41,326 nucleotides of DNA from a virus (lineage: Duplodnaviria; Caudoviricetes), in IMG/VR virus record IMGVR_UViG_3300024344_000040, positions 1-41,326 of that record; one strand, written 5' to 3'. Made by a program: the position numbers and the translations under genes. The notes below the pieces were generated by a model, which was not told where the DNA came from, did not search any database, and worked only from the letters and a program-made list of their open reading frames with translations. This document shows, piece after piece, positions 1 to 41,326 of this stretch. Within the stretch, counting starts at the first letter, position 1. Each line of letters starts with the position of its first letter.

Positions 1-133
1 AACAAAGAGTATTTTAAAGCTAGGTACGTATGCTAAGTATAAGCGTATTCTTACAGGAGAACCAATTACTCGGTCTCCTTTAGATCTATATAGTCAGTGC
101 CAATTTTTAAGTCCCGCTATTCTTGGGTTTAGC
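1..133 (+). repeat. Terminal overlap, copy 1 (assembly circularity)
   Basis: Matches 41194-41326 except position 7 (G) versus 41200 (A). Confidence 0.97.
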
Positions 134-994
134 AGCTACTATAGTTTTAGAAATAGATATGCCATTATGGTAGATATGAAAACAGGGATGCGCAGTTTTA
201 AAAAAGTTGTGGGCTTTCAGAGACTTGACGAGTTAGGAGGTTTAATCCATGATTTTAGTTATCGCTGCAAGAAAGACGAGTGCCTAGATCTACCTGACAA
301 GATTTACCAATATAGAACCGTTGAATTAACTAAAGAACAAAAAGATCTATACAACAATCTATCCAATGCTGCAATGACTCTATACAAAAGTCAGAGTTTA
401 ACAGTGGATAATGCTCTTACATTAATGTTACGATTACATCAAATAACCTGCGGTCATTTTGTATCTGATGATGGAGAGGTAAGCAGTATACCAGATAATA
501 GACTAGCGGAACTAGAACACGTATTAGAAGAAGCACCTGACAAAGTTATTATATGGGCCACCTATGTAAATGACATTAAGAGGATATGCTCTCTCATCGG
601 AGAAAAATATGGATTAGACTCATATGTCCCATACTATGGGGCAGTATCTCAAGATGATAGAGAGACGGCATTAACTAGGTTTCAAAACGAAGAGGCGTGT
701 CGTTTCTTTATTGGAAATCCTCAAACAGGAGGCATGGGTTTAACTCTTACAGCTGCCAATACTGTGGTTTATTACTCTAATAATTTTAATCTAGAACATA
801 GAATACAATCTGAAGATCGCGCCCATAGAATAGGTCAGAACAGAAGTGTTCTTTATGTCGATCTAATTTGTCCAGGAACTATTGATTCAAAAGTAGTGAA
901 GTCACTTAGAGATAAGAAACAGGTGGCTCAACAGATTATGGGAGACAAGATTCAAGATTGGTTGGGCTCAGTTCGTTCTGCTACTTCACCCTGA
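2..994 (+). CDS. SNF2-family helicase, C-terminal part (continues from 40715 across the join)
   Basis: Open from base 2 (TKSILKLG...LTGEPITRSPLDLYSQ); helicase-C motifs KVIIWA, GGMGLTLTAA, QSEDRAHRIGQ. The ORF-track start at 167 is a window artefact. Confidence 0.93.
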   Translation, partial: TKSILKLGTYAKYKRILTGEPITRSPLDLYSQCQFLSPAILGFSSYYSFRNRYAIMVDMKTGMRSFKKVVGFQRLDELGGLIHDFSYRCKKDECLDLPDKIYQYRTVELTKEQKDLYNNLSNAAMTLYKSQSLTVDNALTLMLRLHQITCGHFVSDDGEVSSIPDNRLAELEHVLEEAPDKVIIWATYVNDIKRICSLIGEKYGLDSYVPYYGAVSQDDRETALTRFQNEEACRFFIGNPQTGGMGLTLTAANTVVYYSNNFNLEHRIQSEDRAHRIGQNRSVLYVDLICPGTIDSKVVKSLRDKKQVAQQIMGDKIQDWLGSVRSATSP

Positions 995-2729: not shown

Positions 2730-4712
2730 TTAACCTCCAGGATACATTGCTACAAATTGAGTTCTATCGGTAGTAGTAGAAAAGCCCATTTGACTATTTG
2801 TGTTATCACCTAAGAAGAACATCTTACCGTCAGATGCTTTTAAGATAGTCATGGGTAACGCACTACTATCAATATTACCGAAGTTTATTATGTCATCAAT
2901 TGTCGAATTTGTCTTGCCTATATAGGCTGTTCCTGAAGCTCTTGTATGTGACCAGGAAACTGGCATTGGAAATGCATTAGTAAAACTAGTAGCTGCTTCA
3001 TCTACCTGATGATCGTTGGTATTTAAATGATAGCCAGAAGTCCAAAGTCTACCTAAATTATCGACGAAGAAGAAAGCATTATTTGCGGCAGCAAACCTAG
3101 CAGGAAATACAGAAGTTATATCAGCCCTTGGGAATGTTAACTCAGTCTTAGTTAAGGAACCATTAGCACTTGTTACACTAACAGCTATATTTGTACCAAA
3201 CACTCCTGTTCCCGGTTGAGTCCATGCAGATAAGTTAGTAGTGTTACCTTGCATTAAGACACCACCTCCGTTATAACCTGTCATATAAATGTCACCGTTA
3301 GGAGCTCCCGGAGTACCACCAATTGCACAACCAGCGTGATAAGCACCTTGTCCAGATTGCTGCACGGAACTAAATGTGTTTGAACCTCCTACGTCGACCC
3401 ATGCCGCTCTATCTGTAGTAGAGCCATCTCCAAGCTGTCCAGCAGAATTTTCACCAATTGCGTAAAGATCGCCATCAGTCTTAAGAGCGTAGGCCACGGC
3501 GCTATATGTTGAAGAGTAGGTCCCAGAGGCACAAAGTATTTGACTTACTCCACTGACTCCACTTACCGCAGTTGGGGCTGTTCTGGTAGAACCTTCTCCC
3601 AAGCCGCTTGTATTGTTGCCTGTATAAGTCATGGCACCAGATGTATCAACAAAGTAAGTATCTCGAACACCAGCACTTATTTGAATTGTATTTGTTATAC
3701 CAGATAAGTGTGTTGGAGTTGTGACATTAGATGTGGAACCCACACCAGCTTGACCCTGAGCATTATACCCCCAAGAGTGAACTCTCTTTGAGCTATCAAT
3801 AGCAAAGCAAGTCATAAAAGGTATGCCAGTATATCCATATCCATGTGAAAAAGTAAAAGCAGATACAGTACAAGCTGTACTAGAAACAGTAGCATCAGGC
3901 CCAAGATAAGGATTACGACACCAAAGGTATCTATCTGTTGTATCTCCAAGTCCTAATTGACCATACTGATTTTCACCTCTAACAAATAAGTCTCCGTCAT
4001 TTGTAAGGAACCAAGCATTACCATCGTTATACCATATTCTTACAGGATAATCTCCAGAACGAAGCCCACCAAATTCTGTAGAGATATTAGCGTTAATTAC
4101 AGGACCACCATTATCTTCTGTAGTCCCTGCTCCATGACCGCGATAAGTGTCATAACCACGGAATACTGGTTCATGGTTAGTGTTTAAATACCAAAAGGCG
4201 ACTCCTACACTATACGCGTATTGACTGTTCCGATCTCGCTTTACTGGGCCACAAGCACCATTAGGCATACCATCATAAGGGACCCAACTATTACCATAGT
4301 CAGCAAACCAAGGATACTTACCTCCTTCACCGTGTGTTGTACCATCGTCACTATCAGCGTATAAAGGTATGTTTGTACCTAATGGTGTAAATCCCTCATA
4401 ACCAGAAGTTGACGCCCATTCAAGATCAGTAGCACCTGCTTTTAATATTTGACCAGAAGTTCCTTTTGCTAATCTTGTATTAGCTGAAGCACTTCTTGTT
4501 AGTAGATCTCCTCTTGTTGTTAGAGTATCAAGACCCTCAGCCATAACATTCCAGAATGAGGAACCATCAGCTGGTGTTTGACCGGTTCCGTTTTGGATAC
4601 ACACCCAAGAACTTCCGGTGTGGCTTACAACATCATCAACGACATATGCTGTTGATGCTCCATAAGCTCCCCTCCAATTGAACCTTATTGAACCAACATT
4701 AATTGTTCCCAT
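2730..4712 (-). CDS. RCC1-repeat beta-propeller protein, probable receptor-binding tail protein
   Basis: Repeats such as GENQYGQLGLGDTTDR, GYNAQGQAGVG and GENSAGQLGDGSTTDR; N-terminal WRGAY...YVVDDVVSHTGSSWVC module; follows tail fibre. Confidence 0.85.
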   Translation of the reverse strand: MGTINVGSIRFNWRGAYGASTAYVVDDVVSHTGSSWVCIQNGTGQTPADGSSFWNVMAEGLDTLTTRGDLLTRSASANTRLAKGTSGQILKAGATDLEWASTSGYEGFTPLGTNIPLYADSDDGTTHGEGGKYPWFADYGNSWVPYDGMPNGACGPVKRDRNSQYAYSVGVAFWYLNTNHEPVFRGYDTYRGHGAGTTEDNGGPVINANISTEFGGLRSGDYPVRIWYNDGNAWFLTNDGDLFVRGENQYGQLGLGDTTDRYLWCRNPYLGPDATVSSTACTVSAFTFSHGYGYTGIPFMTCFAIDSSKRVHSWGYNAQGQAGVGSTSNVTTPTHLSGITNTIQISAGVRDTYFVDTSGAMTYTGNNTSGLGEGSTRTAPTAVSGVSGVSQILCASGTYSSTYSAVAYALKTDGDLYAIGENSAGQLGDGSTTDRAAWVDVGGSNTFSSVQQSGQGAYHAGCAIGGTPGAPNGDIYMTGYNGGGVLMQGNTTNLSAWTQPGTGVFGTNIAVSVTSANGSLTKTELTFPRADITSVFPARFAAANNAFFFVDNLGRLWTSGYHLNTNDHQVDEAATSFTNAFPMPVSWSHTRASGTAYIGKTNSTIDDIINFGNIDSSALPMTILKASDGKMFFLGDNTNSQMGFSTTTDRTQFVAMYPGG

Positions 4713-8219: not shown

Positions 8220-11200
8220 TCACCTAGTTAAACATACTGCTGCCGCTCTGGCAGCTTTTGCTAAATTCTCACTATCAATTAAATCTTTTTCATACGTTGC
8301 TGAAACTTCTTTTAAGGCGTTATCTAATTCTTTTGCTAATGCTGGCTCTATATTTGCAAGTTCAGCTTCTAAATCAGATTGAACTTGAGTTAACTCCTCA
8401 TTTTGCTTTGTAATCTCTCTCGATAATTCATGAGGTTTAAGAGCAGCATTTCTTGCAGAATCTGTTTCACCAACTAGATATTCTGCCGTATCATTAGTCC
8501 CATTACTTTTACCAGTTTCTCGATGCTTAGTAGCTAGCTTTATTGCTTCTGTTTTTGTTAGTTTAGGTGGCTCTACAAAACCCTGAGGTAACATATCCAT
8601 CACGATTATTACTTTTCCAGATTTATCAGTGCCTACATCAACAACTCTATATGTCTGGTTAGGGGGTAGTATAACTTCTGTTTCTCCAGTTCCATATTGC
8701 CAAACAGCTTTCATATCTCCTTTTGAAGTTAACATATGCGCGTTCTCAGGTAAATTTATTTTTATTGTTGGTGCTGAAGAAGATTCAAAATTTTGGGCTG
8801 ACAAATAATTAAGAGCGGTAGACATCGCTCCAGTTAATTTAACTTTTTTCCCTACCATAAGTTTTGCAGTTTCAATATCTTTAGCATTATTCATATTAAT
8901 ATCTTTACCTGCAACATTATTAAAAGCCTGATATGGAGTGTTTTGGCGCCAAACAATCATAGGTTTACGTATTCCACCAGCCTCAAGTGCTTGGTTAAAA
9001 CCCTCAACAAGGCCCTTATGGACTCGATAATATTTAGTTACTGTTTTAGTCCAGTCTATCCTATCCAATTCAAAAATCTGGGTCAGATAATCATCACCTT
9101 GGAATTGCTTGCCTATATCACTAGAAACAGAGTGAAAGTCTTTTTTCGCCTGCGTTAGTAGTTTTATCCACTCTCCTAAACTTATAAGACCAAGGGTTTT
9201 ATTATCCTTTGTCCCCGTGAGATTAGGCTCATAATAGTTGATAGCGCGAGTTATGGCATTATACGTGCCGCTAGCACCGGTAAATTTTGCTATGGCAAAT
9301 TTTGTATCTTCAGAGTACTTAGCTTTTTTCTGTAAGCTGTTTAAGATACTTTTGGCAGTTGATCCACTCATTGTAACCCAGGATAAATCAGATTCGGGAG
9401 CTGTTGCTTCAAACTGGTCGGGATACTGAGAAGATAAAGCATCTCGGCGTAATTTCATAAAAGCCTTTAAATCTTGAGCATCATTAACTCCAGACATTGC
9501 GATGAGTTTATCTATCATCTCAGGAGAAACCTTAAATATTGCTTCTGCCGCCTCGCTTTCTAAGTCAGTCATTCGTTGGGCCCCAAGACTCTCTTTTACG
9601 TGTGAGTATACAACGTGTCCATTAGGGTTGCTAGTCTTACCAGTTAATTGGCCCATATTAAATTCTAGACCTTCAGGAAGAGGAGATTTTTTCTTTCCTT
9701 GAGCTCGATAATATAGTGAAGCACCGGGATCGATTCTAACGACTGATCCATCTTTAAGTTGCATCATATTAAAATTTGGAGGATTTCCTACCCAATCGTA
9801 GTTTGCTAACATAACATCAACTAAGTGGCCTCGCCAAAAGTCTTCTAGAACTTTTTTAGGTAAATCTTTAAAATCTTGAGGTGTAATAGTTTTTGCCTCT
9901 TGCAGTTTACTACTAGCAATACCAACAATCTTCTTATTTTGGTGGACAAGTTTATAGTGCGGCATTGGAACACCGAACGCTCTATAAAGTTGAGATGCAA
10001 GCCATTCACTTCGAGCAAGATCTCCAGAAATAGCTCCACTACGCGCGTCTATGGGTTTCTGGTGGTGTTTAAGCAAAGCTAAAACGGCTTCATCTTTAGC
10101 CTTTTGATTAACCGCGTTTCTTAAAAAAGGTGATCTTGGATTATCTAAGCTGTGACCAGAAAGACTCTTTGTTTCTCTTAAATTATCTGGAAAATGCTTT
10201 GTGATTTCTGAGTATGATAAATCACTTTTTCCTATAAAAAATTGGGTATATCGACCACCGGCACCCGCGTGAAAGTATCCGGGAAGAGTAGATTCAATAT
10301 TATATTGATCAGCATCGATCCCCATCTCCTCTTGAACTTCTCTCATAGCGGCCATTTCTGGAGTTTCTCCAGGATTAGCCTGACCTTTTGCATACGTTGT
10401 CTGATACCCGCCAAACCCATCTTCTAGTGAGTCTCGAGCAGGTTTTGGCTGTCTTAAAACAACTTGATTATCTCGTGTTATTATAATAACGCCGTAAGCT
10501 AATTCCTGATTACCTGGATCAGTACTATGTACCTTACCGTAAAGTTTTTTCCAACCTGAAGGATATTGGTTATCAACAAGATCTTTAGGAAACTTAACAT
10601 AATATTCATCTCCAGTCGCCTTATCAATGTGATACCCTCCTGGATGACTTCCACTCGGTTGTCTTCTTGGATTTCCTGAGGGATGGAGATTTTCTATATT
10701 TAGAGCCGTATCAATTTGTTCAACAGCAAAGTCATCGCCTAAAAATGAATTATCCGGAGTCTCGTATGCTTTTTTAAGTTGTGTTCCTTTAATTAAAGGA
10801 CTGAACGCCGCTTTTTCCTCGTTATCGAGAATTGAAAAAGCCTTTGTGGGTTGTGTAAGCTGTACATCTGCTTGATTCATTTGAGAATCAAATCTAACAT
10901 TTTCAGCAGAGATTACATGAACCGATGATTTTTGAGCTTGATTTACATTTGTTCCAACATACGTAAAATTAGCATCAGAAGCATCTAATCCTTTCATAGC
11001 TAGAGCAGGAATTAGTTTTATCACATCTCCTTCTAGTGTTGGAGCTCCATTTCTATTTACAGATAGTCCTATGCCTGCTTCTGAAGTAGCATCAAATAAT
11101 TTAAGAACTCCCGCTTTATTCCTCACTAAGATTGTTCTAAGACCTGAATCAGTCTCAATACGTAAAGCTATTCTTTGTTTATATTTAGATTTTTGAGCAC

Positions 11201-12521
11201 CATTAACGGCGTTAAGTAACTCTTCACTATTTAGTGCTCGCGTGATGTTGTTTTTAAAGTTAGATGTCTTTTCTTTATTAGTAACGAGTCTATCTATTAA
11301 GGTTAAACTTTGATCAATATTCTCATGAGGAATAAACTGTTCTGAGGCGTCTAGCCTAGTTGGACCAATATTAGAATCACCTTGATGCACGCCAACTGGT
11401 GCTTCAACTTCTGCCTGTCTGGCCTCGTGCACTATAGGTGCAGCGCCATCAACATCATTTATTGGAGTCTCTACTTGAGGTTCAAATTCTCCGTGTGTTA
11501 TAGGAGAAACCTCAATGTCTTCTCCGTTCATTGCCTGTTTTACAGCTGTGTCAATTGCCTTAGCGTGTCGTTTTCGAGATATACTTCTCATCATAGGACT
11601 TACTACTCCAGAACCTATGGTGTGTAACCCTCCTCCTAAGACTCCTCCAAAAGCAATATTAACAATCGAGTCAAGAGCGGTATAGTTACTTTGAGAGTGG
11701 TGAGCAGAAGCTAATATCAAGGGCTCGATAGAAGCAGCTCCATACATTCCAGATAATGTTCCTCTGATGGCAGATGAGCCTACTCGACTTCCTTGAACTC
11801 CAACAATTCCTGCTAATCTTGCAGCTCCAATAGGAGGGATAATAGCAGATACTGTTAGACCAATAGGATCGACTATAGCCGTCGCCATTTCTAAACCAAA
11901 GCCTTTCCACCAATGCGCGCCTGTTGCTCTATTTAAAGTAAACTCATAATCTATCTCTTCTTGTTTTCTATGGTGTAAAAAGAAAGCCTCAAGATTTGAG
12001 ATATTTTCTGTAAATTTTAAGTCACCTACTTTCCAGCGAGCGTTAGCTTCTTCTGCGGTTAATATTTTTGTAGGATCTTCATCACCAAAACCAGGATATC
12101 TTTCTTTTATTTGTTGAGGAGCAAATGGTAAACTGTGCTCAACTTCCCACTGAATTCGTTCTCTAGTTCCAGTAAATGGTTGAGCCTCTGGATATACTTC
12201 CTCTCTAAATTGAGAAATAGGTTTGTCATTTTTTTTACCGTATCCACCGGCTATAATACTTGCAGGACTACCAGGACTTTCTGGATTAGTACCATATTTT
12301 TCATAAGCTAATCTTGAAACTTCTCGCTGCTGATCAGTAGCCTCAACAAATTGTCTAATCTCATCTATTTCATTAAAGTATTCTAATCCGCCGTATCCCG
12401 TATATCTCCAACCACGGGTAGTAGCAGCATCCCAAATTTCAGTTGACGATGTTTGTAATTGAAATAAACCTAAACTAGTAGACGTCTGGCTAGGTTTTTG
12501 ATTTTTAAGACCTATATCCAT
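8220..12521 (-). CDS. Polyvalent internal virion protein: kinase-like + Nudix + ADP-ribosyltransferase
   Basis: Gly/Ala-rich hydrophobic N-terminal core-protein segment and AAAVCLTR C-terminus; exact Nudix box at 10317-10385; YVK...E...D...N...IDPG kinase motifs; WR...ST...ETE ART motifs. Confidence 0.85.
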   Translation of the reverse strand: MDIGLKNQKPSQTSTSLGLFQLQTSSTEIWDAATTRGWRYTGYGGLEYFNEIDEIRQFVEATDQQREVSRLAYEKYGTNPESPGSPASIIAGGYGKKNDKPISQFREEVYPEAQPFTGTRERIQWEVEHSLPFAPQQIKERYPGFGDEDPTKILTAEEANARWKVGDLKFTENISNLEAFFLHHRKQEEIDYEFTLNRATGAHWWKGFGLEMATAIVDPIGLTVSAIIPPIGAARLAGIVGVQGSRVGSSAIRGTLSGMYGAASIEPLILASAHHSQSNYTALDSIVNIAFGGVLGGGLHTIGSGVVSPMMRSISRKRHAKAIDTAVKQAMNGEDIEVSPITHGEFEPQVETPINDVDGAAPIVHEARQAEVEAPVGVHQGDSNIGPTRLDASEQFIPHENIDQSLTLIDRLVTNKEKTSNFKNNITRALNSEELLNAVNGAQKSKYKQRIALRIETDSGLRTILVRNKAGVLKLFDATSEAGIGLSVNRNGAPTLEGDVIKLIPALAMKGLDASDANFTYVGTNVNQAQKSSVHVISAENVRFDSQMNQADVQLTQPTKAFSILDNEEKAAFSPLIKGTQLKKAYETPDNSFLGDDFAVEQIDTALNIENLHPSGNPRRQPSGSHPGGYHIDKATGDEYYVKFPKDLVDNQYPSGWKKLYGKVHSTDPGNQELAYGVIIITRDNQVVLRQPKPARDSLEDGFGGYQTTYAKGQANPGETPEMAAMREVQEEMGIDADQYNIESTLPGYFHAGAGGRYTQFFIGKSDLSYSEITKHFPDNLRETKSLSGHSLDNPRSPFLRNAVNQKAKDEAVLALLKHHQKPIDARSGAISGDLARSEWLASQLYRAFGVPMPHYKLVHQNKKIVGIASSKLQEAKTITPQDFKDLPKKVLEDFWRGHLVDVMLANYDWVGNPPNFNMMQLKDGSVVRIDPGASLYYRAQGKKKSPLPEGLEFNMGQLTGKTSNPNGHVVYSHVKESLGAQRMTDLESEAAEAIFKVSPEMIDKLIAMSGVNDAQDLKAFMKLRRDALSSQYPDQFEATAPESDLSWVTMSGSTAKSILNSLQKKAKYSEDTKFAIAKFTGASGTYNAITRAINYYEPNLTGTKDNKTLGLISLGEWIKLLTQAKKDFHSVSSDIGKQFQGDDYLTQIFELDRIDWTKTVTKYYRVHKGLVEGFNQALEAGGIRKPMIVWRQNTPYQAFNNVAGKDINMNNAKDIETAKLMVGKKVKLTGAMSTALNYLSAQNFESSSAPTIKINLPENAHMLTSKGDMKAVWQYGTGETEVILPPNQTYRVVDVGTDKSGKVIIVMDMLPQGFVEPPKLTKTEAIKLATKHRETGKSNGTNDTAEYLVGETDSARNAALKPHELSREITKQNEELTQVQSDLEAELANIEPALAKELDNALKEVSATYEKDLIDSENLAKAARAAAVCLTR

Positions 12522-29668: not shown

Positions 29669-29898
29669 TGAAGACAACTTTCACTTTTGTGAAAGCCTCA
29701 CATAATCGGGATGGTCTGGCTCGTCAGGGTCAGGCCATTCTGAACATTGTTGAGGCAAAACAATCTATTTCGAAAGAAGAATTACTAGAACAGATAGTTC
29801 TCGATGTTAAGAGTAAGCAGAAAGCAACACGTTTACTTTCATACTACAAGGGGATCTTAGTATCTCGAGGATATATAGAGGAGAAACGACATGGCTAA
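29668..29898 (+). CDS. Small winged-helix-like protein, paralogue of the C-terminus of 27896-28420
   Basis: LARQGQAIL...SKQKATRLLSYYKGILVSRGYI; TAATG coupling. Confidence 0.6.
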   Translation: MKTTFTFVKASHNRDGLARQGQAILNIVEAKQSISKEELLEQIVLDVKSKQKATRLLSYYKGILVSRGYIEEKRHG

Positions 29899-30733
29899 CG
29901 CCAAAGGAAGTAAGATTGATAAGACTCACTTATCAGTTGATGCTGCGGAGGAACGAGGTTTCCTTCACAGAGATTACATTGCCCACTGTTTAAGGTGGAC
30001 ACACGTTGTTAAATGGTTAAACCAAAGTGCTAGGTATAAGACAGCACGAATACTAGATGTCGGCTCTGGGAAAGAACTTCCCCTAGCTAAATTGCTTCAT
30101 AGCAGTCGAATGGCACCAGCTTGGTATGGTGCAGTTGATGTAGCTGCACTAACGACACCTGAACAATTTAGAAATTCCAAGTGGAAACCTGATGTCTTAT
30201 TCAGTAAGACAGACGTTTGTGATCTACAAGAAAGTGACTTGCCAGCTCGACCTAACGTGATTGTTTGTTTTGAGGTGCTTGAACATGTCGAACCAGACCA
30301 TTGTAGACGAATCCTTTCAAGTTTTATCCGCCATCTGGACAGTGGAGGCACTGCATTTGTCAGTACTCCTTGTTGGGATCCTGACGTGGGTGCTGCTGCA
30401 AATCATGTCAATGAAATGACTTACCACGCTTTTGGTGCTGCATTAGAAGATTCAGGGTTCTCGATTAAAGGACATTGGGGAACCTTTGCTTCAATGAAGG
30501 ACTATAAAGATCACTTATCAGAGTCACAAAGAGAGGTGTGGGAAGACTTAAGAGGTTATTATGATACTAACTATCTCGCAACTATCATGGCTCCATTAGT
30601 TCCTCAACATAGTCGTAATTGTTTATGGCAGCTAGAAGCGCCTCCAACCCCTGAACCACGATACTTCCCGGGTCTTCGAGATATTCCTGAACGATGGGGA
30701 AGTTCTGAGATATGGGAGAAGTTACAACCATGA
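29891..30733 (+). CDS. Class I SAM-dependent methyltransferase (small-molecule/O-methyltransferase type)
   Basis: ILDVGSG motif I, VCFEVLEHV, FVSTP; no DPPY/NPPY or C5-type PC plus ENV motifs. Confidence 0.88.
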   Translation: MANAKGSKIDKTHLSVDAAEERGFLHRDYIAHCLRWTHVVKWLNQSARYKTARILDVGSGKELPLAKLLHSSRMAPAWYGAVDVAALTTPEQFRNSKWKPDVLFSKTDVCDLQESDLPARPNVIVCFEVLEHVEPDHCRRILSSFIRHLDSGGTAFVSTPCWDPDVGAAANHVNEMTYHAFGAALEDSGFSIKGHWGTFASMKDYKDHLSESQREVWEDLRGYYDTNYLATIMAPLVPQHSRNCLWQLEAPPTPEPRYFPGLRDIPERWGSSEIWEKLQP

Positions 30734-31107
30734 GTATGATACGCGATATAAAAGAGTTTCATGAAAAGTTCAACTTGACCTATGAAGGAGGTCCTAGAGA
30801 GTTACCCGTAGAGTTAGACATCTTTAGGACTAACTTTATTCAAGAAGAACTAGATGAATATATCGATAGCAGCAATCTTGAGCATAAATTTGATGCTCTT
30901 ATTGATATGGTTTATGTAATTCTTGGAACTGCATATATGCATGGTTTTGATTTTGAAGAGGGATGGAAGAGAGTTCACGAGGCAAACATGACAAAAATTA
31001 GACAACCATCTGAAAGATCAGGTTTTGATGTGGTTAAACCTGATGGATGGAAAGCTCCTGATTTAGGTGATCTTGTTGTGGCGCCTCTTCCTTTATTTGA
31101 TGAATGA
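30730..31107 (+). CDS. MazG-like all-alpha NTP pyrophosphatase
   Basis: EELDEY, DALIDMVYV, VHEANMTK and KPDGW motifs; ATGA overlap with the methyltransferase. Confidence 0.9.
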   Translation: MSMIRDIKEFHEKFNLTYEGGPRELPVELDIFRTNFIQEELDEYIDSSNLEHKFDALIDMVYVILGTAYMHGFDFEEGWKRVHEANMTKIRQPSERSGFDVVKPDGWKAPDLGDLVVAPLPLFDE

Positions 31108-32114
31108 TATATATAGTCGACGGTCCTGACGGATCAGGAAAAACAACTCTCGCTCGTGAACTGGTTGAAAAGATAGGTGGAAGGTATATCCATCTAACTT
31201 ACCGGTTTAAAGAAAGAATATTTGATTACCACACTGCCGCGATAAGGTTGGCTGCCAGAAGTAAAGTTCCGATTGTTATAGATCGGTGGTGGCCAACCGA
31301 AGCAATATACGCTAAAGCATATCGTGGAGGAAGTACTTGGCCGATGCAGGGTAGACTAGCAGATAGGATTGCTAGGAAGTTTGGAGCAATATATATCTAT
31401 TGTTTACCTTCATCAGTTAACTCTGGTGTTGCAATGTTTAACAAGTTGAAAGAAGAAAGAGAAGAAATGTACGAAGACATTCAAGATGTAATAGACTTAT
31501 ACATCAAGTTGTGGGATGGTCATCTAGAACACGAAGATAAGGGTCAGTATATAGACTTTCTTATTCGTAATGGTGGATTAAAAGATAGGCCAGATCATAG
31601 ATACTATAACATTGGACATTGGGGTCATGCAAAAGATCTTTTTTGTGAACGAGTAATTGAACAATCATATGTTTGGAGAGGACTACAATATGAACCCGCT
31701 TTGGATTTTAATGAGTGGAACGTTACTGGTCATCTTTGTGGGAGTAGTTATTTGTTTGTAGGTGATCAAGCTAATCCAAAATTTAGAGAACTGTCTTGGC
31801 CTTTTTATGAATATGGTAATAGCAGCTTATACCTAACAGAACTTCTTCATCGTCTAAACTTTAAAGAAGATGCTGCAATGTGGTGTAATGCGTACAATGT
31901 GGATGGTTCTATGAATAGACATATACAAGGTATTGTATCAAGGAACCCTAAGATTAAGGTTATTACACTAGGAGAAAGAGCTCAAGAGGTCTGTGATAAA
32001 AATTCAATACAGACTCACGCAAATGTTTGGCATCCTTCTTATGCTAAGCGTTTTAATAAGAAAGAAGAATATGAAGATCAAATAACGGAGGCATTAAAGC
32101 ATGAGTTGTGTTAA
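31104..32114 (+). CDS. dNMP (thymidylate-type) kinase fused to a uracil-DNA-glycosylase-fold domain
   Basis: GPDGSGKTT and IDRWW in the N-half; LFVGDQAN, PF, WCNA, VITLGERA and HPSY in the C-half. Confidence 0.8.
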   Translation: MIYIVDGPDGSGKTTLARELVEKIGGRYIHLTYRFKERIFDYHTAAIRLAARSKVPIVIDRWWPTEAIYAKAYRGGSTWPMQGRLADRIARKFGAIYIYCLPSSVNSGVAMFNKLKEEREEMYEDIQDVIDLYIKLWDGHLEHEDKGQYIDFLIRNGGLKDRPDHRYYNIGHWGHAKDLFCERVIEQSYVWRGLQYEPALDFNEWNVTGHLCGSSYLFVGDQANPKFRELSWPFYEYGNSSLYLTELLHRLNFKEDAAMWCNAYNVDGSMNRHIQGIVSRNPKIKVITLGERAQEVCDKNSIQTHANVWHPSYAKRFNKKEEYEDQITEALKHELC

Positions 32115-32886
32115 TACTGAATGGTGTTATACTGCTAAAGAAATCTTGTTACACGGCGATCCAGCCTATACTCGAGACAAGGCCGTCACTGAGATACTAG
32201 GTAAACAAACATCGGTAGATATGAACTATCCTATCTTGACTCAAGCTAATCGAGAGTTAGGATATAAGTTTATGTTTGCTGAAGCCCATTGGATTTTATC
32301 TGGTGATAATAGAGTTCAAAATATTGCTCATTATTCTCGAATGATAAAAGATTTTTCAGATGACGGAGTAACTTTCTTTGGTGCATATGGTCCTAAGATA
32401 GTGTCTCAACTTGGACACGTTGTTAAAGCCTTACAAGACGACGATGAGACAAGACAAGCAGTTATTAATATATGGCGAGAGAGTCCTCCGCCCAGTAAAG
32501 ATATCCCTTGTACAATAAGTCTACAATTCTTAGTAAGATATAATCAGTTACACATTATTGATACTATGCGATCCTCTGATATATGGTTAGGCTGGCCATA
32601 TGATATATTTAATATGAGCATGGTGGCACGTTATGTTCTTTCTTATCTTAAAGAAATTGATCGTGAAGTCTGGGATCAAGTGACACTAGGAAAACTATAT
32701 CTTAATGCTGGCAGCATGCACCTATATAATACAGAAGAACAAAAACTTGCATTTTTACTTGAAGATGGTTTTCAGCCATCAAAGAGTACAGTAAAAGTTC
32801 CTATCTTTAACAACCGTGCTGAATGTTTAGCTTATTTACTGGGAGGGATGGCCGGTGGGAGAGCTTACTTTGATACCGAAGCGTAG
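32101..32886 (+). CDS. Thymidylate-synthase-fold enzyme, dCMP (hydroxy)methylase type
   Basis: AEAHWILSG, GAYG, RQAV, DIPCT catalytic Cys, MRSSDIWLGWPYD (Asp at the specificity site), GSMHLY. Confidence 0.85.
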   Translation: MSCVNTEWCYTAKEILLHGDPAYTRDKAVTEILGKQTSVDMNYPILTQANRELGYKFMFAEAHWILSGDNRVQNIAHYSRMIKDFSDDGVTFFGAYGPKIVSQLGHVVKALQDDDETRQAVINIWRESPPPSKDIPCTISLQFLVRYNQLHIIDTMRSSDIWLGWPYDIFNMSMVARYVLSYLKEIDREVWDQVTLGKLYLNAGSMHLYNTEEQKLAFLLEDGFQPSKSTVKVPIFNNRAECLAYLLGGMAGGRAYFDTEA

Positions 32887-33328
32887 ATTAGATGTCGATA
32901 CCTACTTTCTCGCGATGGCAGATTTGGTTTCACAACGTAGTACTTGTCGTAGGCGTTCCGTTGGTTGCGTTCTGGTGGATGACCGTAATCGTGTTTTGGC
33001 TACTGGTTACAATGGTGTGGCTAGTGGTGACGTGCATTGTTTGGATATGCCATGCCCCGGCGCTGGCCTTCCAAGCGGTACTGGTCTCGATGAATGTCAC
33101 GCCATACACGCCGAGCAAAATGCGATTCTACAGTGTCAAGATGTTACGAAAATCTTTTCGGCGTATATTACAGTCAGTCCGTGCGTTTCTTGCGCGAAAC
33201 TTTTAATGAATACTAGTTGTGGTCGTATTGTATTCTCTGAAGAATACACTAGTACTGCAGCAAAACAATTTTGGAATAGAGAATGGATATGTCATGGCTC
33301 AATTAAACATGTTTTTACCCGAAAGTAA
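32855..33328 (+). CDS. dCMP deaminase
   Basis: STCRRRSVG, TGYNG, HAEQNA and PCVSC zinc motifs; exact start uncertain. Confidence 0.93.
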   Translation: MGELTLIPKRRLDVDTYFLAMADLVSQRSTCRRRSVGCVLVDDRNRVLATGYNGVASGDVHCLDMPCPGAGLPSGTGLDECHAIHAEQNAILQCQDVTKIFSAYITVSPCVSCAKLLMNTSCGRIVFSEEYTSTAAKQFWNREWICHGSIKHVFTRK

Positions 33329-35189
33329 GTGGGTTCCTCCTAAGGAGTTACCAGATCTTAGTGCAGCAAAGGTAATCTCGTTAGACGTTGAAACCTGTGA
33401 TCCTAATTTATTAACCAGCGGACCAGGAGGTGTAAGACATGACGGAAAACTTGTGGGAATATCGGTGGCAACAGACACTGGTTTTAAAGGGTACTTCCCC
33501 ATCGCTCACGAAGGAGGAGATAATCTTGACCGTGACGCTGTGCTCAGATGGGCCTCAGCTACATTTGGAGGAACACAAACAAAGGTTGGAGCAAATCTCC
33601 TCTACGATCTTGAGTGGTTGCGCGCAACAGGGATTGACGTTAAAGGTCCTCTCAGAGATATCCAAGTTGCAGAGCCCCTGATAAATGAAGAACGTGATGG
33701 AGGTTATTCTTTAAACAACTTATCTAAGGTATATCTTGGAGAAGAAAAAGAAGAAAAATTATTAACTGAAGCAGCCATTGCTTTTGGTGTTGATCCTAAA
33801 GGTGGTTTATGGAAACTTCCTGCTAGATATGTTGGACCGTACGCAGAAGCAGACGCCGAGTTACCACTAAAGATATGGGAACAGCAAGAGACAATCCTTA
33901 GACGTAATGATTTATGGGACGTCTTTGAGATGGAGGCTGAGTTACAACCAGCTATTTTAGATATGAGATTTAAGGGAGTACGTATTGATTTAGATAAAGC
34001 AGAACAGTTAAATGAAGATTGTCTAACTGAAGAAGTAACTCTTTTAAAGAGTCTTAGAGAGGAGTGCGGCATGGTTATAGAGCCGTGGTCTAATGATGAC
34101 ATGGCTAAGGCTTTTGATAAACTAAAGATATGGTATCCTAGAACCCAAAGAGGAAATCCGTCATTTGTTTCTGACTGGCTTAAAAACCATGAACACCCGT
34201 TTGCTAAAAACATTGCAAAATGGCGGCGGGTAAATAAGATGCGGCGTGATTTTATTGAGGGCGTTTGTTTAAAAATGAGTTATAATGGTAGAGTACATGC
34301 TCAGTTTCATTCGCTGCGCAAAGATGCTGAAGGTACGCGGTCAGGTAGATTTAGCAGTTCAACACCTAATCTGCAACAAGTCCCTGCTCGCGATCAGCAT
34401 TGGGGTCCACTGGTACGCTCTCTTTTCCTCCCTGATGAGGGCTGCCGGTGGGCTTGTTTAGATTATAGCCAGCAAGAACCCAGAGTCCTACTACATTACG
34501 CATCTCTTAGAAAATTATCTGGTGCTGATGAAGCTGTTGAATTATTTAAGACAGATTCTAATGCTGACTTTCATACTATCGTAGCAGACATGGCAGGTAT
34601 TCCTCGCAAGCAAGCAAAGACAATCAACTTAGGTATGTTTTACGGAATGGGAATATATAAATTAGCAAGTGAATTAGATATTGATTTATCAGATGCGAAG
34701 TCTCTTTCAGAACAGTATCACCAAGAGGTTCCATTTGTAAGACAGCTTGCAAATGAGTGTACAAAAGCTGCTAATCAAAAGGGTTATATAAAAACTCTCC
34801 TAGGAAGAAGACGACACTTTAATTTGTTTGAACCAGCTGATAGTAGAAACACGTGGCCCAATAGAGAGACGCCATTAAATAAAGAAGCTGCTCAAAAAGT
34901 TTGGAGTGATAGACGACTTAGACGATCCTTTACACATAAAGCCTTAAACGCCTTGATCCAAGGATCTAGTGCAGATATGACAAAGAAGGCGATGTTAGAT
35001 TTATATCGTGAGGGCATCACGGCTCACATAACTGTACACGACGAGTTAGACTTCTCAATTAACGAAGGTGTACAATCGGACCTTTACCGTGATATAATGG
35101 AAAAGTGCGTTGACCTTGCAGTACCTCTAAAGGTTGATGTAGAAATTGGCCCTAACTGGGGTGAACTAGAGGAAAAGAAAGGAGACTGA
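33294..35189 (+). CDS. polA: Family A DNA polymerase with 3'-5' exonuclease (Leu762 type)
   Basis: Exo DVET, NLLYD, YAEAD; GRFSSSTPNLQQ, DYSQQEPR, KTINLGMFYG, VHDEL; ATG at 33294 preferred. Confidence 0.96.
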   Translation: MAQLNMFLPESKWVPPKELPDLSAAKVISLDVETCDPNLLTSGPGGVRHDGKLVGISVATDTGFKGYFPIAHEGGDNLDRDAVLRWASATFGGTQTKVGANLLYDLEWLRATGIDVKGPLRDIQVAEPLINEERDGGYSLNNLSKVYLGEEKEEKLLTEAAIAFGVDPKGGLWKLPARYVGPYAEADAELPLKIWEQQETILRRNDLWDVFEMEAELQPAILDMRFKGVRIDLDKAEQLNEDCLTEEVTLLKSLREECGMVIEPWSNDDMAKAFDKLKIWYPRTQRGNPSFVSDWLKNHEHPFAKNIAKWRRVNKMRRDFIEGVCLKMSYNGRVHAQFHSLRKDAEGTRSGRFSSSTPNLQQVPARDQHWGPLVRSLFLPDEGCRWACLDYSQQEPRVLLHYASLRKLSGADEAVELFKTDSNADFHTIVADMAGIPRKQAKTINLGMFYGMGIYKLASELDIDLSDAKSLSEQYHQEVPFVRQLANECTKAANQKGYIKTLLGRRRHFNLFEPADSRNTWPNRETPLNKEAAQKVWSDRRLRRSFTHKALNALIQGSSADMTKKAMLDLYREGITAHITVHDELDFSINEGVQSDLYRDIMEKCVDLAVPLKVDVEIGPNWGELEEKKGD

Positions 35190-40714: not shown

Positions 40715-41326
40715 ATGACCCATAGTAACATATACCCTTTTAAGACCCGCCCTTACACTCATCAGAGGGAGGCCTGGGACATATCGAAGAATTTAGATGA
40801 GTTCGCCCTGTTTATGGAGATGGGAACCGGGAAGTCTAAGGTAATTATTGATACAGTTGCGTATCTTTATGATGCTGGTCGGATAGACTCCGTGTTAATC
40901 ATCGCTCCTAAAGGTATGTATAAGAATTGGATTAATAACGAACTTCCCACGCACCTTCCAGATCACATAGTACATAGAGCCGCTGCTTGGTCTTCAACAA
41001 TGCGTAAAGCAGAAGAAGAAAAAGTCAGGTCTTGTCTTGAAGCTGTCGATGATCTACGTATTATAGTAATGAATGTTGAGGCCTTTAGTTCAAAGAAAGG
41101 TGGCAAGTTTGCAGAGTTGTTTTGCACCTGTGGAGGTAATGTCTTTATGGTTGTTGATGAATCCACAACGATCAAGAATCCTAAAGCTGCTAGAACAAAA
41201 AGTATTTTAAAGCTAGGTACGTATGCTAAGTATAAGCGTATTCTTACAGGAGAACCAATTACTCGGTCTCCTTTAGATCTATATAGTCAGTGCCAATTTT
41301 TAAGTCCCGCTATTCTTGGGTTTAGC
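40715..41326 (+). CDS. SNF2-family helicase, N-terminal part (joins 2-994; about 490 aa in total; not in ORF track)
   Basis: Hand translation MTHSNIYPFKTRPYTHQ...MEMGTGKS...IIAPKG...VVDESTTIKNP; in frame through the terminal overlap. Confidence 0.93.
   Translation, partial: MTHSNIYPFKTRPYTHQREAWDISKNLDEFALFMEMGTGKSKVIIDTVAYLYDAGRIDSVLIIAPKGMYKNWINNELPTHLPDHIVHRAAAWSSTMRKAEEEKVRSCLEAVDDLRIIVMNVEAFSSKKGGKFAELFCTCGGNVFMVVDESTTIKNPKAARTKSILKLGTYAKYKRILTGEPITRSPLDLYSQCQFLSPAILGFS
41194..41326 (+). repeat. Terminal overlap, copy 2
   Basis: Matches 1-133 with one mismatch. Confidence 0.97.

Follow-up and report, generated by a model that had tools for sequence, protein, structure and literature searches.

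The T4 pathway to glucosylated 5-hydroxymethylcytosine (5hmC) draws on the dCMP hydroxymethylase gp42, the kinase gp1, the dCTPase gp56, the deaminase cd, and alpha- and beta-glucosyltransferases. Here we analyse a related gene cassette in the virus record IMGVR_UViG_3300024344_000040 (Duplodnaviria; Caudoviricetes), whose full 41,326 nucleotides we refer to as the window. Six plus-strand open reading frames (ORFs) form an overlapping chain at 29891–35189 (Table 1), encoding an S-adenosylmethionine (SAM) methyltransferase (MT), a MazG/PRA-PH-type dNTP pyrophosphatase, a kinase fused to a uracil-DNA glycosylase (UDG) fold, a thymidylate synthase (TS)-fold enzyme, a dCMP deaminase family protein and the DNA polymerase PolA. 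The cassette shares with T4 the active-site signature of its TS homologue and the set of pyrophosphatase, kinase, deaminase and polymerase, but it is a compact podovirus operon with PolA, a kinase joined to a UDG fold and a TS of the MilA-like clade. No glucosyltransferase was found in the window, which has a SAM methyltransferase in its place, and relatives of the window put MT in T4's beta-gt slot. We propose that the cassette replaces cytosine by 5hmC and that MT then O-methylates it to 5-methoxymethylcytosine, a reading to which we give an even chance and which is based on gene content, folds, active-site residues, linkage and mutual exclusion, with the activity and the base both predicted.

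Several other described systems resemble parts of this locus. The MetaGPA 5hmC carbamoyltransferase pathway likewise combines a TS homologue, PRA-PH, dCMP deaminase and a non-sugar transferase capping 5hmC (PMC8670742), but the window has no carbamoyltransferase and the cap proposed here is a methyl ether. The 5-methylcytosine (5mC) pathway of Xp12 and PaMx74 has, like the window, an N177D TS beside dCMP deaminase, PRA-PH and PolA (10.1101/2024.12.05.627091), whereas the window has Asp at position 143 and the DNA of AXL3, a cultured phage with the same cassette, resists KpnI, which Xp12 DNA does not. The 5-hydroxy-dCMP synthases of RB69, DLP3 and RL38JI share N177D and an acidic residue at 143 with the window TS (PMC13326640) but carry D169N, whereas 155 of 155 TS sequences aligned here keep Asp. 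The bacimethrin pathway also links a hydroxymethylcytosine synthase to a methyltransferase (10.1101/2025.04.17.649140); it is CMP-based and yields a free antivitamin, whereas the window TS appears deoxy-specific and lies beside a kinase and PolA. The neighbourhood of TS, PRA-PH, deaminase and PolA has been tied experimentally to modified cytosine in metaviromes (PMC8670742; 10.1101/2024.12.05.627091).

The closest PDB sequence to the window TS is the CMP hydroxymethylase MilA (E 6e-18), and the enzyme, a member of the MilA-like clade, is 22% identical to gp42; its family aligns with gp42 across the active site (HH alignment, prob 97.7). Residues E61, R118, D134, C137, S158, D160 and D168 form the same signature as in gp42: the catalytic Cys (C137 for ThyA C146) and Glu (E61 for gp42 E60) are both present, D134 pairs with gp42 D145 at ThyA position 143, Asp168 occupies the ThyA N177 position, and Asp160 is retained at ThyA Asp169. 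This signature recurs throughout the 155 aligned sequences, which include the window TS and gp42, and in 52 of 52 loci from a separate metagenome set found with MT; the pattern used to find TS relatives fixed S158 and D160 and left D134 and D168 free. Asp at ThyA 177 marks a preference for dCMP, an acidic residue at 143 marks hydroxymethylation as opposed to methylation (a rule that the source calls a correlation), and D169N marks the 5-hydroxylase class (PMC13326640). Ser167 and Arg126' are tied to deoxyribose preference, where MilA has Ala176 and Lys133 (PMC5175136); the window TS carries the deoxy-specific pair, S158 and R118, unlike MilA. Given the D134/D168/D160 signature, we predict that TS is a dCMP 5-hydroxymethylase of the gp42 type, forming 5-hydroxymethyl-dCMP, rather than a synthase of dTMP, 5mC, 5-hydroxymethyluracil (hmU) or 5-hydroxycytosine. 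That the cassette makes 5hmC we consider very probable.

Three other identities for TS were set aside. A canonical ThyA or a dUMP hydroxymethylase of the SPO1/ViI type is disfavoured by Asp168 where Asn177 would be expected; an Xp12-type dCMP methylase would combine N177D with a hydrophobic residue at 143, where D134 stands instead, the Xp12 enzyme itself lying outside the alignment; and a 5-hydroxy-dCMP synthase like RB69 gp48 would carry D169N at the position where Asp160 or its equivalent is kept. An earlier note on this DNA had proposed a C5-pyrimidine modification pathway feeding PolA, with T4- or SPO1-type logic and a TS that is not a plain dTMP synthase. The pathway is supported, and the residue at the N177 position agrees with the view of TS; T4-type dCMP hydroxymethylation stands by its residues, whereas SPO1-type dUMP chemistry does not. 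Its 5-methoxy-dC or -dU is not supported, since it would need a 5-hydroxylase, a class with D169N (PMC13326640), and the window TS keeps Asp160; dU products in general are disfavoured by Asp168 and by AXL3 DNA, which is cut by AT-only enzymes and left uncut by enzymes that cut hmU DNA. Its other candidate, 5-methoxymethyl-dC, stays the leading predicted product, with a probability of about one half.

The same TS signature is found in the cultured T7-like Pelagibacter phage HTVC119P (L003:7439-8723), where the gene lies with a kinase and is annotated as thymidylate synthase; the cultured T7-like pelagiphage HTVC200P has a kinase and a TS by tblastn only. No MT match was found by tblastn in either genome; 5hmC DNA is predicted.

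MT and hydroxymethylase-type TS genes occur together across viral and metagenomic sequences. We assembled two sets of loci starting from MT, the best 80 of 107 viral loci and the best 80 of 336 metagenome loci, which partly overlap. TS was present at 63 of the 80 viral loci, the other 17 ending no more than 1.9 kb away on one side. Every locus with at least 3 kb available on both sides held a hydroxymethylase-type TS (49 of 49 viral, 31 of 31 metagenome), so that MT is tightly linked to the cluster in relatives; the earlier note had named a lack of such linkage as evidence against it. None of the metagenome loci lacking TS (27 of 80) has 3 kb on both sides, and the TS-less locus L227 resembles L050, in which TS lies about 5 kb upstream. 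MT partners with TS of the MilA-like clade, of the T4 gp42 clade (52% identical to gp42) and of other distant clades. The order in T4 is 42, beta-gt, segA, uvsX; in T4-like contigs MT follows directly after TS and upstream of uvsX, the beta-gt slot of T4. Three such contigs (L078, L080 and L081) read TS, MT, deaminase, two sugar genes and UvsX, as does L059 minus the deaminase. A gene for DUF1599, 'nucleotide modification associated domain 1', lies near TS in 14 of the 80 loci collected from MT (L059, L062-L088), T4-like as well as T7-like ones; none was found in the window.

Starting instead from TS, we compared 50 contigs (48 of at least 28 kb among the best 80 of at least 594, plus L015 and L017). 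MT was present in 29, a gene resembling beta-glucosyltransferase (BGT) in 8, both in none and neither in 13; among the 26 that are at least 90% complete, 16 carry MT and 3 the BGT-like gene. The BGT-like family is unannotated, 346 aa long (L013:700-1737 and its kin L007-L012, L128, L157 and L170), and resembles clusters of the T4 beta-glucosyltransferase family PF09198 (ESM Atlas, 0.95). It shares the TS cassette, often beside a C5 DNA methylase and an NDP-sugar epimerase. A search with PF09198 over the 50 contigs gave no match, but positive controls were likewise unmatched, making it uninformative; a carbamoyltransferase search, whose controls were positive, found 0 in 50. If the cap is a methyl ether, MT and glucosyltransferases would be interchangeable, as part of a reading that we hold to be evenly balanced.

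Other genes stand in TS loci that have no MT. A set made up of PHROG 13881, a pyridoxal phosphate (PLP) enzyme and a third gene with no phage match occurs in L133:11151-13868, L142, L124:333-3059 and L136, in two unrelated phage types, and possibly represents another DNA modification. In Erythrobacter phages, its PLP gene is matched by a portion of a DNA methyltransferase ORF. The label 'AADT' considered for this set was a guess whose sole support was a PLP-enzyme match, and the set was not counted as an hmC cap. L153:5972-9360 holds sugar-pathway-like genes and a 416-aa ORF weakly like T4 BGT (18%, E 0.02), and L117:7075-7821 is an HtrL/YibB gene.

MT itself matches only Methyltransf_23/25/12/11 in Pfam; Pfam gave no match to a DNA C5- or amino-methyltransferase family, and a C5-methyltransferase profile matched nothing in the window. 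The AlphaFold2 (AF2) model (pLDDT 88) has a class I fold with no close solved relative, and its structural matches (VIA) include CmoM (Z 18.9, rmsd 3.6, 209 aligned), ChlM (Z 18.9, rmsd 2.7, 187 aligned) and HEN1 (Z 16.9, rmsd 2.7, 185 aligned). The earlier note had called MT small-molecule-type; small-molecule folds are among the nearest, but so are the nucleic-acid O-methyltransferases CmoM and Hen1. CmoM, tied with ChlM for the top Z, methylates the C5 side chain of a tRNA uridine, and both enzymes act on carboxyls.

In profile searches MT resembles UbiG and HEN1, with its EVLEH and STP motifs lining up with HEN1. Its CFEVLEH pairs with CLEVIEH of 3htx (E 8e-4), corresponding to the HEN1 metal ligands E796/E799/H800, a motif shared by UbiG. 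In HEN1, E796, E799, H800 and H860 bind Mg2+ and ribose hydroxyls (PMC10781085); H172 of MT lies in the place matching H860, but beyond the printed alignment. All 116 homologues aligned, many of them near-copies, keep E128, E131, H132, H172 and E175. MT shares with the Hen1/UbiG/CmoM O-methyltransferases a class I fold, with a Hen1/UbiG-like ExxEH...STP...NH site, but is only 15–17% identical to them and has invariant motifs of its own at the N terminus (HRDY..H..RW) and the C terminus (AP..P...RN). The family comprises 1184 clusters at E ≤ 0.001, and among 185,579 cellular genomes it appeared at only 3 loci, on contigs of 4–42 kb in metagenome-assembled genomes, two with cassette genes. From these motifs and the model, MT is likely a 5hmC O-methyltransferase.

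The cassette also occurs in cultured phages. Stenotrophomonas phage AXL3 and Pseudoxanthomonas phage PW916, both siphoviruses, have MT, NTP-PPase, kinase-UDG, TS and deaminase in the same order as the window, with the window's TS signature; two Manatee Spring genomes hold the same cassette genes. The AXL3 and PW916 proteins differ in sequence from the window's (MT 27%, TS 44% identical), and their published descriptions assign the cassette genes to thymidylate synthesis or dUMP hydroxymethylation. Since AXL3 also encodes a separate ThyX-type protein, it does not depend on its TS homologue for dTMP; none of the known cap genes tested for, glycosyltransferase included, was found in AXL3. Of 37 enzymes applied to its DNA, only 2, both AT-only, are reported to cut it (PMC7504290), and its genome has 13 KpnI, 14 AhdI and 21 PdmI/XmnI sites. 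We take PdmI to be an isoschizomer of XmnI. Complete cutting by KpnI is seen with 5mC and hmU DNA but not with 5hmC DNA, and XmnI partly cuts DNA of T4gt (83% 5hmC) but not glucosylated T4 DNA (PMC7653180). Resistance of AXL3 DNA to KpnI thus argues against 5mC and hmU, and resistance to PdmI is a weak hint of a capped base beyond 5hmC.

Under the proposed pathway, the MazG-like enzyme would hydrolyse dCTP (and dUTP) to the monophosphate, and it is likely to be the cassette's dCTPase/dUTPase, a role that gp56 fills in T4. PRA-PH is enriched in modified-cytosine contigs (50 vs 179; supplementary table 2 of PMC8670742). TS, with methylene-tetrahydrofolate and water, would convert dCMP to 5-hydroxymethyl-dCMP, which the kinase would phosphorylate, host NDP kinase completing the triphosphate for incorporation by PolA. 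The deaminase likely diverts surplus dCMP to dUMP for host thymidylate synthesis, and its family is strongly tied to modified-C phage contigs (10.1101/2024.12.05.627091). With its Hen1-like metal site, MT would then methylate the 5-CH2OH group, most likely on DNA after replication, the nucleotide level being nearly as likely. T4 beta-glucosyltransferase acts on DNA post-replication. Known caps are mostly attached at the DNA level (PMC13326640), which together with the swap between MT and a glucosyltransferase-like gene favours the post-replicative step. Charge says nothing about DNA versus nucleotide substrates: MT has a pI of 5.9, the BGT-like family 6.2 and T4 BGT 9.05.

The remaining domain, the UDG fold, would probably remove uracil or deaminated modified cytosine. 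In the fusion protein a dNMP kinase spans residues ~1–195 and a family-4 UDG fold ~200–336, the latter with no Pfam match. The AF2 model (pLDDT 91) matches the kinase YorR (2axp, E 2e-6), the family-4 UDGs 1l9g (E 3e-5) and 1vk2 (E 6e-5), and UdgX entries in Foldseek. Family-4 enzymes have motif A (GEQPG..PF..N) and an HP motif; the domain conserves GDQ, PF/PW, N262 and HP, and its UdgX sequence match reaches only E 1.1. Family-4 UDGs carry Fe-S cluster cysteines, and no Cys is conserved across 22 aligned domains of this family. As for purpose, type IV restriction systems recognise the hydroxyl or sugar on modified DNA; a methyl ether could hide these groups while the modified base blocks type II restriction.

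Several observations weigh against the methyl-ether cap. The fold matches of MT are generic (Z 15–19 over many class I methyltransferases, 9–17% identity), and N-methyltransferases score almost equal to O-methyltransferases. The Hen1 site binds a vicinal diol (PMC10781085), and a base-borne primary alcohol differs as a substrate both from that diol and from the carboxyls of CmoM and ChlM. The 13 TS contigs with neither MT nor the BGT-like gene imply that a cap would be optional. Because the 50 contigs are kin, the Fisher p of 4e-4 overstates the mutual exclusion, which amounts to a handful of swaps (at least 7 changes of label along the TS tree, with labels assigned in this analysis). The BGT-like identity was unconfirmed by hhalign (prob 6.8), PDB or Pfam (0 of 55 members). 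In MetaGPA the enrichment of Methyltransf_23 is no more than nominal (27 vs 1436, corrected p 1; PMC8670742). The AXL3 digests, whose gel legend names only 4 enzymes (PMC7504290), were compared across laboratories and isoschizomers, and AXL3 MT is just 27% identical to window MT. The literature search turned up no cassette-bearing phage whose nucleosides had been analysed.

Some of the same evidence fits DNA that contains plain 5hmC, with MT acting elsewhere, on an RNA 3' end (as Hen1 does), a sugar, a protein or a pathway by-product. We think this rather unlikely, despite the fact that a Hen1-type site binds 2',3'-diols (PMC10781085), that more than a quarter of TS contigs (13 of 50) have neither cap gene, that T4-like MT loci include UDP-sugar dehydrogenase and epimerase genes, and that 5hmC DNA of T4gt shows nearly all of the AXL3 resistances (PMC7653180). 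Plain 5hmC leaves unexplained why MT is linked to hydroxymethylases of several clades, why it occupies the beta-gt slot and why it excludes the BGT-like gene, and no glycosyltransferase that might supply a sugar was found in the window or in AXL3.

Alternatively, MT might methylate hmC at another atom, either N4, which would still pair, or, on the model of bacimethrin, O2 of the free base, with the UDG-fold domain releasing the base. Bacimethrin synthesis starts from CMP and uses a TS homologue, base release and a methyltransferase (10.1101/2025.04.17.649140), the PDB sequence nearest to TS is the antibiotic enzyme MilA, and N-methyltransferases are among the fold matches of MT. The UDG-fold domain was seen in 23 of the 29 loci with MT and in none of the 21 without, but the profile was built from close kin, which inflates this link, and 6 of 29 MT loci, as well as T4-like and T7-like loci, have MT without it. 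With deoxy-specific Ser158 and Arg118 in TS rather than MilA's Ala/Lys, and an exclusion of the BGT-like gene that points to the hydroxyl, we regard methylation at another atom as distinctly unlikely.

Still less probable is a route in which the deaminase turns 5hmdCMP or 5hmdCTP into the uracil form, so that thymine is replaced by hmU or 5-methoxymethyluracil. Some deaminases beside N177D synthases do deaminate 5hmdCTP (mSCD-B5, 65% in 30 min; 10.1101/2024.12.05.627091), and the window has no ThyX or second TS by Pfam. However, the deaminases selective for 5-substituted C sat beside 5mdCMP synthases (5 of 7 confirmed; 10.1101/2024.12.05.627091), AXL3 DNA is cut by AT-only enzymes (PMC7504290), and KpnI, XbaI and the XmnI isoschizomer fail on it yet fully cut hmU DNA (PMC7504290; PMC7653180). 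Very improbable, finally, is ordinary thymidylate supply or an Xp12-type 5mC pathway: deaminase, TS and kinase do make up the textbook dTMP route, as annotated and described by the authors for AXL3 and PW916, and 5mC phages have N177D synthases with a deaminase (10.1101/2024.12.05.627091), but every aligned homologue has both Asp168 and Asp134, the ThyA equivalog scores of the window TS (29–48 bits) are all far under the cut-offs (108–405), AXL3 has its own ThyX-type gene, and AXL3 DNA resists KpnI, which cuts Xp12 DNA fully (PMC7653180).

The window is a circular phage genome, its ends sharing a 133-nt overlap with one mismatch; the earlier note's statements that the genome is complete and that the cluster is a run of overlapping genes both hold, with all six ORFs on the plus strand. 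That strand carries replication genes, and the minus strand T7/Bbp-like portal and tail genes. The note had also reported no glycosyltransferase, and we too found none, nor a carbamoyltransferase or ThyX, among the window's 43 ORFs by Pfam and PHROG, several small ORFs being unannotated; six-frame searches of the window gave no match to a BGT-like profile, to T4 BGT or to any of five further candidate modifier proteins, which leaves room for a very divergent glycosyltransferase among the unannotated ORFs. Palindromes occur at observed/expected ratios of 1.0 (4-mers) and 0.93 (6-mers), which without an unmodified control were not used as evidence. The metagenome runs that contain at least half of the window's words come from subsurface and marine settings. 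The window's DNA is supported by a 41,223-nt contig, possibly its source, in run X1 and by pieces in X2, X3 and X5.

Table 1. Cassette genes and other genes of the window, with coordinates and supporting matches.
Feature	Coordinates	Strand	Evidence
SAM methyltransferase (MT)	29891..30733	+	PF13489 E 2e-11; phage family, class I
MazG/PRA-PH-type dNTP pyrophosphatase	30712..31107	+	PF01503 E 9e-10; PHROG 671
Kinase-UDG fusion	31104..32114	+	P-loop kinase weak in Pfam; PHROG 761 E 2e-12
TS-fold enzyme	32101..32886	+	PF00303 E 9e-17
dCMP deaminase family protein	32855..33328	+	PF00383 E 6e-20
PolA, family A DNA polymerase with 3'-5' exonuclease	33219..35189	+	PF00476 E 1e-65; PF01612
SNF2 helicase	40716..41326 and 1..994	+	
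1433-aa protein in virion gene block	8220..12521	-	NUDIX E 4e-8; ADP-ribosyltransferase PF03496 E 2e-7
Tail-region protein	2730..4712	-	N-terminus CBM5/12-like; RCC1 repeats

The MazG-like ORF probably uses an ATGA-coupled start at 30730, and PolA, from its start context, probably begins at ATG 33294. Over 33294-35189 the best NCBIfam match of PolA is phage DpoZ_1, at 318 bits against a cut-off of 500, and the Pfam scan of the window found no PurZ; PolA is thus probably a relative of the DpoZ_1 clade and not a Z polymerase. The SNF2 helicase gene spans the end overlap, whose two copies differ by the one mismatch. The 1433-aa protein may act like T4 Alt, as an enzyme injected for host takeover.

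We found neither the MT add-on nor 5-methoxymethylcytosine in DNA in the literature, in a search that was thin on subscription papers, and a prior prediction may exist. One paper lists O-methyltransferases close to phage dioxygenases, naming no product. This analysis contributes the whole-contig exclusion between MT and the BGT-like gene, the position of MT in the beta-gt slot of T4-like contigs, the comparison of AXL3 with KpnI and XmnI data, and the association of MT with the UDG domain. We put at about even odds that the MT family caps 5hmC as a methyl ether and that 5-methoxymethylcytosine stands in for cytosine in the genomes of many aquatic phages of podo-, sipho- and T4-like types. If so, this would be a new base in the phage alphabet and a third type of 5hmC cap, after sugars and carbamoyl groups, and it would account for the unexplained restriction resistance of AXL3. 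MT would also be a candidate 5hmC-specific methyltransferase, possibly useful to label or protect 5hmC in epigenetic sequencing. Because the cultured phages AXL3 and PW916 carry the cassette, the methyl cap is testable. Even if the methyltransferase step fails, hundreds of phage 'thymidylate synthase' genes (at least 594 relatives), that of HTVC119P included, are predicted to be cytosine hydroxymethylases.

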